From the IMG/VR virus record IMGVR_UViG_3300017989_005036, positions 1 to 64,000 of that record: a stretch of DNA of 64,000 bases; one strand, written 5' to 3'. The DNA comes from a virus. The notes beneath the pieces are model-generated. The model worked only from the letters and a program-made list of their open reading frames with translations, searched no databases and was not told the DNA's origin. Position 1 is the first letter of the stretch, and every line of letters begins with the position of its first letter. The translations under genes and the position numbers were made by a program. Below, piece by piece: positions 14,014 through 20,818 of the stretch.

Positions 14014-15441
14014 ATGAACATCTGGGGCATTACAGCTACAACTCACGACGCATCTTTATCTGTCATCGAAGATGGTGAGATTCTTTTCGCAGCACACTCT
14101 GAGAGATACTCCAAAAAGAAGTTCGACCCAGAGCTGAATTTCGACATCATCATTGATGCGATGCAATATGGTAAACCCGACGTTGTTTGTTTCTATGAAA
14201 ATACATGGAAAAAGAAGTGGAGACAAATTCGATGCGGAAATTTCTCTTACGCTTTCAATCGACAGAAGCTTCCTCGAAACTACCTGAAGCAATTCGGTAT
14301 CAAAGCTCCCATAAAATACACAGATCACCACTTGTCGCACGCAGCAGCAGGTTACTACACATCGTCATTCGATGATTGCGTTGCCGTCGTAATCGATTCT
14401 GTTGGTGAGTTCCAAACAATGTCGATCTGGGATGTCAAAGATGGCCAGTTCTCCCTGAAACATGAAATGAACTTCCCTCACTCAATTGGCCTTCTGTATT
14501 CAGCGTTCACCAAGAGGTGCGGTCTCAAACCCAACAGCGAAGAATATATTCTCATGGGAATGGCTGCTTATGGACAACCAATGCATGTTGATGACATTGC
14601 CAATGATTTTCTTTGTGATTGGATGCCAAACAAAGATATTCATTGTGGAATTGGAGACTGGAAGCCCGAGGCCAAGAAAGAAGATTTGGCAGCAAGTATT
14701 CAGATCGTCTGCCAAAAACAAATTGAACAGGCGATGAACCTCGCCAGACGGTATTCCAAGAACTTGGTTTACATGGGCGGTGTGGCACTGAACTGTTTGG
14801 CGAATTCCACCATTGAGGACTTCGACAATATTTGGATTATGCCGAATCCCGGTGATGCAGGATCATCTTTGGGTGCAGCAGCTTATCACTACGGACAAAA
14901 GTTAAACTGGAAAGGGCCTTATCTGGGAACAGACATTCCGGGCAATTACAGTTGCGAAGAAGCCTGCGACAGACTTTTGAAAGGTGAAATCATAGGTGTT
15001 GCAAACGGCAGGGCAGAGTTTGGCCCTAGAGCTTTTGGAAACAGGTCATTGTTGGCTGATCCGAGATCACATGACATGAAAGATCAAGTCAATGTGATCA
15101 AGAGGAGACAAAAGTTCCGTCCGTTTGCTCCATCGGTGTTGGCTGAACATGCTGAGGATTGGTTTGAGATCAATCATCCTTCTCGATACATGCAGTTTGT
15201 ATCGAAGTGCAAGAGATCAGATGATGTCCCTGCGATTTGCCATGTTGATGGAACTTCTCGGGTTCAAACTGTGTCTCGAAATGACAACGCCAAATACCAC
15301 GAACTTTTGAGTTTATTTTTTGAGAAGACGGGTTGCCCAATGTTGCTGAACACGAGCCTGAACATTCGAGGGATGCCATTGGTCAACGATGAAAGAGATG
15401 CAAGGATGTTCTCTGAAAGATACAATGTTGTTGTGTTTTGA
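14014..15441 (+). CDS. carbamoyltransferase, NodU/CmcH family
   Basis: HDAS, ERYSK, HHLSHAA, GGVALNC, EFGPRAFGNRS, FRPFAPS, LLNTSLN. Confidence 0.95.
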   Translation: MNIWGITATTHDASLSVIEDGEILFAAHSERYSKKKFDPELNFDIIIDAMQYGKPDVVCFYENTWKKKWRQIRCGNFSYAFNRQKLPRNYLKQFGIKAPIKYTDHHLSHAAAGYYTSSFDDCVAVVIDSVGEFQTMSIWDVKDGQFSLKHEMNFPHSIGLLYSAFTKRCGLKPNSEEYILMGMAAYGQPMHVDDIANDFLCDWMPNKDIHCGIGDWKPEAKKEDLAASIQIVCQKQIEQAMNLARRYSKNLVYMGGVALNCLANSTIEDFDNIWIMPNPGDAGSSLGAAAYHYGQKLNWKGPYLGTDIPGNYSCEEACDRLLKGEIIGVANGRAEFGPRAFGNRSLLADPRSHDMKDQVNVIKRRQKFRPFAPSVLAEHAEDWFEINHPSRYMQFVSKCKRSDDVPAICHVDGTSRVQTVSRNDNAKYHELLSLFFEKTGCPMLLNTSLNIRGMPLVNDERDARMFSERYNVVVF

Positions 15442-15464
15442 TTCGATTTTGATACAATGAAATG

Positions 15465-15698
15465 AATCCCCCATGTCATCGCAGCACTCCCAGAGGGTGT
15501 TGAGGAAGGTCAGGGCATCATTGCTTAAAGTGGGAGAGTTCGCTCGTCAATACCACTGAGGATGCAATCCCAAGCAGGCTGAGCAGGTGAGCAATGCTAT
15601 GAAAGCCGGGTGAGGAGCAGCGGCAAACCCGCAAGGGACCGCCAGTGAAAGCTGAGATAAATGATGGCACACGACAGAACCCTGCCTATCGGGGGATT
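15465..15698 (+). ncRNA. rnpB: RNase P RNA, minimal (reduced specificity domain)
   Basis: CR-I GAGGAAGGTCAGGGC and CR-V ACAGAACCCTGCCTA with compensatory P4; P1 AATCCCCC/GGGGGATT; P2 TGTCATC/GATGGCA. Confidence 0.9.
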
Positions 15699-15858
15699 TT
15701 TTGACAAACAAGATTTGAAAGAAGCCATTGATAATCACATTCGTGTTCTAAGTGATTTTCGAAGCACATTGTTTTTAGACCCAAATTTTCTTGACCAAAT
15801 AATGAACGATCATCCCAAACGACCAATTGAAAAAATTGATTGGAAACAAGGCTTTTAA
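15661..15858 (+). CDS. small protein ending IDWKQGF (start probably after rnpB)
   Basis: ORF track; variant of the shared C-terminal motif. Confidence 0.55.
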   Translation: MMAHDRTLPIGGFFDKQDLKEAIDNHIRVLSDFRSTLFLDPNFLDQIMNDHPKRPIEKIDWKQGF

Positions 15859-15922: not shown

Positions 15923-16276
15923 ATGAAGAAAATTGAACGCCAAGGAACAGAAACTTTAACTATACAAAACTGCCCTTGTTGCAATGGAGAGATTGAAGTC
16001 AGTGAATGTGGTTATTCAAGTTTCAATCCCGGAACAGCAAAGTGTGTTGGAAAATGCAAACGTAAATGGGATCTTGGTTATGTGAATAATGAATGGGATT
16101 GTGGCGAAAGGTGGAATGAACTTTCCCGAGAAATTAAGCGAAAACTAAAAGCTTTCAAATTACTGGAAGTCAATAATACACTCGCTTCTTCACGTGATTT
16201 TGAACGTGAAGCTTTAGCAGAAGAAGCTGAGCTACTTTTAAAAGAACTTGAAGAACAAATCATTGATGCTTCTTAA
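15923..16276 (+). CDS. Zn-ribbon hypothetical protein
   Basis: CPCC...CVGKC..WN. Confidence 0.7.
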   Translation: MKKIERQGTETLTIQNCPCCNGEIEVSECGYSSFNPGTAKCVGKCKRKWDLGYVNNEWDCGERWNELSREIKRKLKAFKLLEVNNTLASSRDFEREALAEEAELLLKELEEQIIDAS

Positions 16277-19648: not shown

Positions 19649-20818
19649 ATGGCTCATTACACTTACAAGTTCAGACTCTATCCTAATAAAGAACAGCAAC
19701 GACGGTTCGCTGCTCACTTTGGTTGCGTCCGCTTTGTGTATAACCACTTCCTTGATGAACGTAAAACTGCTTATGAGCAAAATGGCGAGAGTCCAAACTA
19801 CTATGACCAAGCGGCAACGCTCACTAAGTTGAAGAAAGAAAAAACTTGGTTGAAGGAAACTAATAGTCAAGTATTGCAATTCTCGCTCAAATGTTTGCAG
19901 GCAGCATACAACAACTTCTTTGCGAAACGAGCGAAGTTTCCTCGTTTTCACGCCAAGAAAAACAAGCAATCGTTCACTATTCCACAACATGTCAAAGTTC
20001 AAGATGGCAAGTTGTATTTTCCGAAGTTTAGTGATGGAGTGAAAGTCAAGCTACATCGCCAGATTGATGGAGAAATCAAACATGCTACGGTCAGCAAGAA
20101 TTGTGCTGGTCAATACTTTGTCTGTATTCTTGTAGAACGAAACATCAAATCACTTCCCAAATTAAAGAGAGAAGTGGGAATTGATCTTGGTATTACTGCA
20201 TTGGCAACACCTTCTGTCGGCAAGGCGTATGAGAACATCCGACCTTACAAGACATTGCAACGAAAGTTGCGAAAGTTGGACAAGGACTTAGACCGCAAGG
20301 AACTTGGCAGCAAGAACCGAGAAAAAGCACGGCTCAAACTGGCTCGCCTACATAACAAGATAGCAAACATTCGTAATGACCACTTACACAAAGTTAGTCG
20401 CCAGATAGTTGATGAAAACCAAGTCATTTGTCTGGAAGACCTGAATGTGAAGGGCATGATGAAGAACCGTTGTCTTGCAAAATCAATCGCCGATGTATCG
20501 CTGTCGGAATTGGTTAGACAGATTGAATACAAGGCTGGCTGGTATGGTCGGCAAGTAATCAAAATAGATCGTTGGTTTCCGTCGAGTAAGATGTGTTCAT
20601 CTTGCGGATATGTGATGGAAACATTACCATTAGATGTTCGTTCGTGGTGTTGTCCTCGTTGTGAAAGTAAACATAACCGAGACAAGAATGCAGCGAAGAA
20701 TATCTTGGTTGAAGGAAAAAGAACCGTAGGAACTACGGAGTTAGCCTGTGGACTTGGCGTAAGACTTGAGAGCAATCGAAAGCGGCTAAGGGTGAAGCAG
20801 GAAGCCCCGACCCTTTAG
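19649..20818 (+). CDS. tnpB: RNA-guided endonuclease TnpB
   Basis: YKFRLYP; RuvC residues GIDLG, LEDL, RDKNA intact; Zn finger CSSCG..CPRC. Confidence 0.97.
   Translation: MAHYTYKFRLYPNKEQQRRFAAHFGCVRFVYNHFLDERKTAYEQNGESPNYYDQAATLTKLKKEKTWLKETNSQVLQFSLKCLQAAYNNFFAKRAKFPRFHAKKNKQSFTIPQHVKVQDGKLYFPKFSDGVKVKLHRQIDGEIKHATVSKNCAGQYFVCILVERNIKSLPKLKREVGIDLGITALATPSVGKAYENIRPYKTLQRKLRKLDKDLDRKELGSKNREKARLKLARLHNKIANIRNDHLHKVSRQIVDENQVICLEDLNVKGMMKNRCLAKSIADVSLSELVRQIEYKAGWYGRQVIKIDRWFPSSKMCSSCGYVMETLPLDVRSWCCPRCESKHNRDKNAAKNILVEGKRTVGTTELACGLGVRLESNRKRLRVKQEAPTL

Follow-up and report, generated by a model that had tools for sequence, protein, structure and literature searches.

RNase P RNA belongs to the small number of universal ribozymes, and in the searchable papers it appears as a gene of cells and organelles. 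The catalytic domains (C-domains) of the bacterial RNAs have been shown to be active on their own (PMC5839562). The isolated C-domain of E. coli requires P15-P17 and a P6-type contact for its activity, P18 is of little importance once the specificity domain (S-domain) is missing, and on a model substrate the efficiency of the C-domain by itself is about 500-fold below that of the full RNA (PMC5839562). A natural RNA with a degenerate S-domain is the archaeal type T of Pyrobaculum and other Thermoproteaceae which, as presented in the papers that cite Lai et al. 2010 (PMC7191817, PMC5839562, PMC3579882), is a working cellular enzyme that retains P6, lacks P18, operates with several archaeal proteins and is the essential enzyme of the cell itself. 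The smallest RNase P RNA classes reported with P finder are archaeal only, and viruses are not mentioned there (PMC7191817); likewise, a study of mycobacterial tRNA clusters describes no short RNase P RNA (PMC6582537). Full-text searching, with most subscription journals outside its scope, gave no paper on a virus-encoded RNase P RNA, either short or full-size.

The window considered here is the whole stretch of 64,000 nt corresponding to positions 1-64,000 of the IMG/VR virus record IMGVR_UViG_3300017989_005036, the record itself extending over 75,420 nt. The record is about 15% complete (CheckV), which implies a genome of about 500 kb, the DNA being part of the genome of a very large phage that has not been cultured. 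The genes of the window include a T4-like set for replication (helicase, gp32-type SSB, UvsX-like recombinase, family A polymerase and UvrD), as well as 11-12 tRNA genes recognised as tRNA model matches. The initial annotation, made from the letters alone, had placed at 15465-15698 a 234-nt RNase P RNA with recognisable catalytic elements (P1-P4, CR-I, CR-IV and CR-V), a covarying P4, an S-domain cut to a short segment and a length below that of typical bacterial rnpB, and had proposed a search with RNase P covariance models. This search bears out the description: RF00010 (bacterial class A RNase P RNA) matches positions 15463-15704 of the + strand with 67.4 bits and an E-value of 2.5e-20 (cmscan, permissive filters), model positions 1-367 being matched end to end, and the P1 pairing of 15465-15472 with 15691-15698 makes the boundaries exact. 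It is the single RNase P RNA match in the entire record, and within the RNase P clan, of which cmscan keeps only the top family, RF00010 scores highest. The Rfam gathering threshold for RF00010 is 100 bits, and the RNA was overlooked by routine annotation because its score falls below this cutoff; at the gathering thresholds the window yields tRNAs only.

The RNA is 234 nt long, compared with the 367 positions of the RF00010 consensus. Three segments of 15, 15 and 110 model positions are represented by 10, 10 and 17 nt, respectively; that is, 140 positions of the S-domain are replaced by 37 nt. The features of the gene are listed below, where pairs said to change do so on both sides among eight relatives; all the listed helix pairs of the window (P1, P2, P3, P5, P15, P18 and the rest) are standard pairs.

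15450-15458, + strand: promoter-like extended -10 element TGATACAAT, read from the sequence and identical in the relative L137
15465-15698, + strand: complete miniature RNase P RNA gene, 234 nt, from the RF00010 match and covariation
15465-15472, + strand: P1, 5' strand, 8 bp with 15691-15698; standard pairs, 7 of 8 change
15474-15480, + strand: P2, 5' strand, 7 bp with 15663-15669; 6 of 7 pairs change
15483-15501, + strand: P3 hairpin, 7 bp with a 5-nt loop; 5 of 7 pairs change
15502-15516, + strand: CR-I, including the 5' strand of P4
15507-15509 and 15511-15515, + strand: P4, 8 bp with 15680-15687, bulged U15510; 100% paired in 8 relatives
15516-15519, + strand: P5, 5' strand, pairing with 15561-15564; one compensated and one wobble change with respect to L137
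15521-15525, + strand: P6 pseudoknot, 5' strand (in J5/7), pairing with 15590-15594 in the P17 loop; 5 of 5 pairs change
15529-15557, + strand: S-domain remnant, a 29-nt stub with a 5-bp helix at the P7 position (15529-15533 with 15553-15557) and a conserved GGAG
15536-15545, + strand: capping mini-hairpin with a UUCG loop, within the stub
15564-15567, + strand: J5/15 GCAA, where A248 lies in E. coli; conserved to at least 85-97% among 34 members
15568-15616, + strand: P15-P16-P17 module; 3 of 3 pairs change in P15, 4 of 4 in P16 and 2 of 3 in P17
15568-15570 with 15614-15616, 15577-15580 with 15604-15607 and 15583-15585 with 15595-15597, + strand: P15, P16 and P17, respectively
15608-15611, + strand: L15 GGGU, the binding site for the tRNA 3'-CCA; GGU conserved in the family
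15620-15642, + strand: extra hairpin with a GCAA tetraloop, found only in the closest relatives of the window; one compensated change with respect to L137
15643-15654, + strand: P18 hairpin with a GAAA tetraloop; GCAA, GAAA or UUCG loops in relatives
15655-15663, + strand: CR-IV and J18-2, AGAUAAAUG, from the RF00010 alignment and family conservation
15674-15688, + strand: CR-V, ACAGAA followed by the 3' strand of P4 (15680-15687)
15697-15702, + strand: 3' T-run; with an alternative hairpin at 15680-15694 it is terminator-like

CR-I, CR-IV and CR-V are aligned to RF00010 with high posterior probability, and the catalytic domain is complete and of type A, an assignment that follows from the presence of P6 and P16/P17 instead of the P5.1 and P15.1 of type B. 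Of the specificity domain, CR-II and CR-III are absent, P8-P14 are gone and a P7 stub is left. The energy of single-sequence folding is no better than that of shuffled sequences (z = -0.33). Upstream, the last base of the extended -10 element lies 7 nt before A15465, the first base of P1, and a weak -35-like TTGTGT is found at 15431-15436; a sigma-70 scan did not report the putative promoter at 15450-15458, its -35 being poor. Downstream, the similarity to L137 ends exactly at the T-run and resumes at the next gene.

The RNA thus shares with the bacterial type A (RF00010; M1 RNA of E. coli, rnpB) CR-I, CR-IV and CR-V, P1-P5, the bulged U of P4, the P6 pseudoknot with P16/P17, P15 with the L15 GGU, and P18 with a GNRA loop. 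It departs from it, apart from its size and score and the absence of P8-P14, CR-II and CR-III, in being encoded by a phage without rnpA and in the extra hairpin before P18. Natural origin, a degenerate S-domain and a retained P6 are common to this RNA and to the archaeal type T as its citing papers describe it; however, the window RNA descends from the bacterial type A, has P18 and is viral, its context being a phage with T4-like replication genes. The two reductions of the S-domain are evidently independent. Its closest engineered counterpart is the Eco CP RPR (PMC5839562), a C-domain with P15-P17 and the P6-type contact and no S-domain. This RNA is the product of laboratory deletions that lowered the efficiency on the model substrate (PMC5839562), whereas that of the window is a natural conserved gene with a P7 stub of its own and an added hairpin.

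Relatives were sought with a pattern that joins CR-I through a gap to the nine opening bases of CR-V and leaves five pairs of P4 unconstrained. The pattern gave 5 further loci in IMG/VR, 38 in metagenomes and 22 in cellular assemblies. In 47 of the 66 matches from the three collections all five unconstrained pairs were Watson-Crick; the other 19 had only 1-3 such pairs and are chance hits. The pairing of the window RNA thus goes well beyond what chance would give. Two of the P4 pairs vary among the 47 sequences, the first being A-U in 38, G-C in 8 and C-G in 1, and the second C-G in 37, A-U in 7 and G-C in 3. At both positions the window belongs to the minority, each deviation from the bacterial consensus being compensated, and the P4 strands quoted in the initial annotation pair perfectly around the bulged U. 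Five short copies (L162, L152, L151, L111 and L127) were excluded as scaffold gaps or masking, since NN stands exactly at the point of the deletion. Moreover, the exact 15-mer of CR-I gave only chance hits in coding DNA when searched in viral contigs, and a gap of 170-200 nt between CR-I and CR-V gave no viral match. Against GenBank phages, blastn found no match for the window RNA and, for the more consensus-like RNA of L107, full-size host-type rnpB only, in three records. The stable RNAs rnaC and rnaD of T4, also considered as relatives, were rejected, being matched by neither RF00010 nor the model R1 described below.

The covariance model R1 was built from the window RNA and L137 with nested helices only, P4 and P6 being outside the model. 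It scores the window RNA, one of its two building sequences, with 300 bits, and it gave 34 end-to-end matches of 190-249 nt, of which 8, all above 70 bits, form the subfamily of the window. In the alignment of these 8 sequences, 96.2% of the pair cells are paired, compared with 73.1% in shuffles (0 of 500 reached the observed value) and 34-45% with slid partners; both-side changes are found in 45 of 68 pairs, and the covariation score of 0.549 stands against 0.176 in shuffles and 0.06-0.11 with slid partners. The pairing figures for the nested helices lean towards structure, the alignment having been fitted to those helices by R1. P4 and P6, however, are paired in 100% and 94.7% of cases, respectively, though outside the aligning model, and both covary; P6 was scored on the 8-sequence alignment, distant members being misaligned there in that of 34. 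The model-based alignment was preferred to one made with MAFFT from six copies, in which the 5' helices were poorly aligned. With respect to L137, which is 91-93% identical to the window RNA, nearly every substitution in a helix is compensated or preserves a wobble pair; the changes are found in P5, the stub helix (two double changes), the extra hairpin, P18 and P1, and two pairs of the P7-position helix covary. P3 ranges among the relatives from 3 bp to more than 12 bp, and P18 is missing in L105, L108 and L124.

As regards single nucleotides, the conservation of CR-I and of the start of CR-V is circular, since both were used to find the relatives. Conservation in the 34 sequences is also seen where the pattern set no constraint, namely in the J5/15 GCAA, the L15 GGU, AG...AUG in CR-IV and the 3' part of CR-V. 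In E. coli, A248 contacts the -1 nucleotide of the substrate (PMC6582537, PMC10465520). The comparison shows a conserved structured RNA and, by these patterns of change, purifying selection on its helices, its two pseudoknots and its substrate-contacting nucleotides. That the gene might be the decaying remains of an rnpB captured from a host or a phage, now devoid of function, would be in keeping with its large internal deletion, with a score below the Rfam cutoff and with the truncated rnpB paralogues that stand beside full genes in bacterial assemblies (L149). Nevertheless, the compensatory changes in 45 of the 68 pairs, two pseudoknots included, the retention of the architecture in distantly related phages and the fact that the only copy of a complete 498.6-kb genome is of this kind all speak against decay, and this reading is strongly disfavoured, its probability being very small indeed.

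That complete phage genome, G002, with terminal repeats, is one of five IMG/VR relatives (94-499 kb), and in each of these the single RNase P RNA is a short one (192-243 nt, 55-118 bits). Since the record covers only about 15% of its own genome, a full-size RNase P RNA may exist elsewhere in the phage of the window. G002 and G005 encode UvsX-like proteins with only 29-31% identity to that of the window, indicating that the window subfamily spans distant phages. Of the 41 short copies that are genuine and free of N, 21 have tRNAs within 600 nt, in every case on the same strand, and in L104, L105, L106 and L108 the RNA is 0-16 nt from the adjoining tRNAs, so that tRNA processing would release it. 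By sequence comparison, these RNAs make up a family with a complete type A C-domain and an S-region of a few tens of nt, carried in large-phage DNA and usually in tRNA arrays; the window RNA itself is, on the alignment and covariation evidence, an RNase P RNA that belongs to the bacterial type A lineage, is carried by a phage and has a stub for its S-domain.

In the window, the RNA gene is 7.3 kb away from the tRNA array, and its neighbours, together with two unusual RNA genes of the window, are the following.

14014-15441, + strand: carbamoyltransferase (PF02543 and PF16861), immediately upstream of the RNase P RNA
15661-15858, + strand: 65-codon ORF, terminating in IDWKQGF and overlapping the 3' end of the RNA with its first 13 codons
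1169-1312, + strand: tRNA-like gene of 144 nt with a large internal (D-loop) insert; tRNA model 36.4 bits
5162-5207, + strand: SRP helix-8-like hairpin; RF00169, 33.7 bits, E-value 1.9e-5, model positions 23-68, cutoff 40

The linkage between the carbamoyltransferase and the RNase P RNA is also present in L137. This carbamoyltransferase family combines Kae1-like and YrdC-like domains related to the tRNA t6A enzymes, so that a role in tRNA modification is conceivable. The 65-codon ORF is missing in L137, where the next gene comes directly after the RNA, and it reflects either a wrong annotated start or a recent insertion. The following 117-aa ORF (15923-16276), found among the compared loci in L137 only, was considered as an RnpA-like cofactor and rejected, being acidic (pI 5.0) and without a Pfam family. 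Further downstream, a TnpB or IS605 OrfB-type gene (PF01385, PF07282, PF12323) is located at 19649-20818 on the + strand.

As the initial annotation had stated for the window, rnpA is absent: RnpA (PF00825) has no match in the window or anywhere in the 75,420-nt record, and none is encoded by the five IMG/VR relatives, for which reason the protein partner is assumed to be that of the host. Four of these five relatives encode a protein of the CCA-adding-enzyme family PF01743. The window RNA retains P15-P17 and the P6-type contact, exactly the parts that the E. coli C-domain needs. These parts, the conserved substrate-contact nucleotides and the company of tRNAs, CCA-adding enzyme and tmRNA argue for an active subunit, and the RNA is probably a functional type A RNase P RNA without an S-domain, a putative catalytic subunit that would use host RnpA. 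It would be transcribed alone, from the extended -10 promoter to the 3' T-run, and would assemble with host RnpA into a holoenzyme cleaving the 5' leaders of the many pre-tRNAs of the phage. The substrate would be placed by its acceptor stem, its -1 nucleotide (J5/15), its 3' end (L15 GGU) and the protein-bound leader, and not by the tRNA elbow. The phage would in this way gain its own supply of the catalytic subunit during infection. Given the 500-fold loss seen in E. coli, the RNA could be a poor enzyme. The reading is also weakened by the distance of the gene from the tRNA array of the window, by the missing CCA in 11 of its 12 tRNA genes, by the unremarkable folding energy and by the score under the Rfam cutoff.

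A conserved viral family of this kind would put a ribozyme among the translation-related genes of large phages. It would also be a natural experiment on what the bacterial enzyme can do without in vivo, a question so far addressed through engineered deletions and the archaeal type T RNA, and structural and engineering studies would gain small catalytic cores (about 190-250 nt) already tested by evolution. Scoring under the Rfam cutoff, RNAs of this kind escape routine annotation.

The initial annotation had further suggested that the loss of the S-domain could suit the atypical tRNAs and the SRP RNA of the window. In its developed form, this idea supposes a specialised enzyme in which losing the elbow-reading S-domain shifts the choice towards substrates that a full RNase P handles badly, the candidates being the insert-bearing tRNA, the miniature SRP-like RNA and non-tRNA precursors. 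Both unusual genes do exist in the window. The 144-nt tRNA-like gene is the only one of its tRNA genes that encodes the 3'-CCA, which is missing in the other 11 of the 12, although the CCA-binding GGU is retained in the RNase P RNA. The SRP-like hairpin lies between two tRNA-Ser genes, 6 nt before the next tRNA, and resembles a miniature SRP RNA that tRNA processing would set free; in E. coli, the non-tRNA substrates of RNase P include precursor 4.5S RNA. However, 11 of the 12 tRNAs of the window have canonical elbow elements (the T-loop and the GG of the D-loop), relatives with the same S-domain reduction sit among canonical tRNAs scoring 60-73 bits, and the reduction is family-wide, extending to phages with the 29-31% identity in a core protein mentioned above. 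The rationale based on atypical substrates thus found no support, though it may hold for single ones such as the insert-bearing tRNA at 1169-1312, and a specialised enzyme of this type is decidedly improbable.

Furthermore, when the pattern was set to the bacterial spacing (230-290 nt), 50 IMG/VR loci were obtained, all with a perfect P4. About half of them are at contig ends without tRNAs and are probably the host flank of proviruses. Another 23 are in tRNA arrays, in contigs of up to 463 kb, and 15 of these were scored, all of them being type A RNAs of full size (318-383 nt, 151-277 bits) that have CR-II and CR-III:

L216 6330-6684, L210 6074-6431, L173 4030-4350 and L199 7064-7438, plus 11 others: full-size copies in viral contigs

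A tmRNA is also found at two of the full-size viral loci. These RNAs share with the short ones the type A lineage and the same-strand niche in tRNA arrays, sometimes with tmRNA, and differ from them in size, score and their complete S-domains; phage RNase P RNAs thus range from full size to minimal.

The full-size copies bear on whether the short RNA could act without useful catalysis, as a decoy or hijacker that binds host RnpA or pre-tRNAs; by titrating RnpA from the host RNase P, it would depress or redirect the maturation of host tRNAs. The regions that bind RnpA in bacterial holoenzymes (P2-P3, CR-IV and CR-V) are retained, the lack of a phage RnpA in the record and the five relatives means that the partner must be that of the host, and isolated C-domains are weak enzymes (PMC5839562). 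A pure protein sponge, on the other hand, would need neither the L15 GGU, the J5/15 GCAA, the bulged U of P4 nor P6, all of which are conserved or covarying, and full-size, apparently complete RNAs occupy the same tRNA-array position in other viral contigs, which fits the supply of an enzyme better than inhibition. Such a decoy is quite unlikely. A takeover device, in which the RNA captures host RnpA into a holoenzyme blind to the tRNA elbow, favours phage precursors, odd ones such as the insert-bearing tRNA and the miniature SRP-like RNA included, and deprives the host RNase P of its protein, is unlikely too, if a little less so; were it true, the loss of the S-domain would be an adaptive change of specificity, beyond mere economy. 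The reading as a catalytic subunit supplied by the phage and working with host RnpA is the one preferred here.

Finally, reduced RNase P RNAs were also observed in cellular assemblies. In a Micromonospora isolate, a 230-nt RNase P-like RNA (L161 4541-4770, 86 bits) lies inside an array of 34 tRNAs, the genome also having a normal rnpB of 416 nt (279.8 bits); the short copy retains P8 and P9 and is without P10-P14 and P15-P17, a different pattern of reduction. In a deltaproteobacterial MAG, a truncated rnpB paralogue of 233 nt (L149 509-741) is found 2 kb from the full 396-nt gene, with ends near-identical to it and without P10-P14 and P15-P17; a pseudogene, a paralogue and an assembly artefact are all possible readings of it. 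The sole rnpB matches of a Rhizobiales MAG (L153 7567-7794, 228 nt, no S-domain) and of a Pseudomonas isolate assembly (L167 1169-1417, 249 nt, without P10-P14) are both N-free, and could be real or misassemblies. A Candidatus Shapirobacteria MAG, a CPR genome of 0.9 Mb, gave a single RNase P RNA (L154 2049-2254), which is 206 nt long and has a strongly reduced S-domain, its best model being the archaeal RF00373 with 103.8 bits, above the cutoff of that model.
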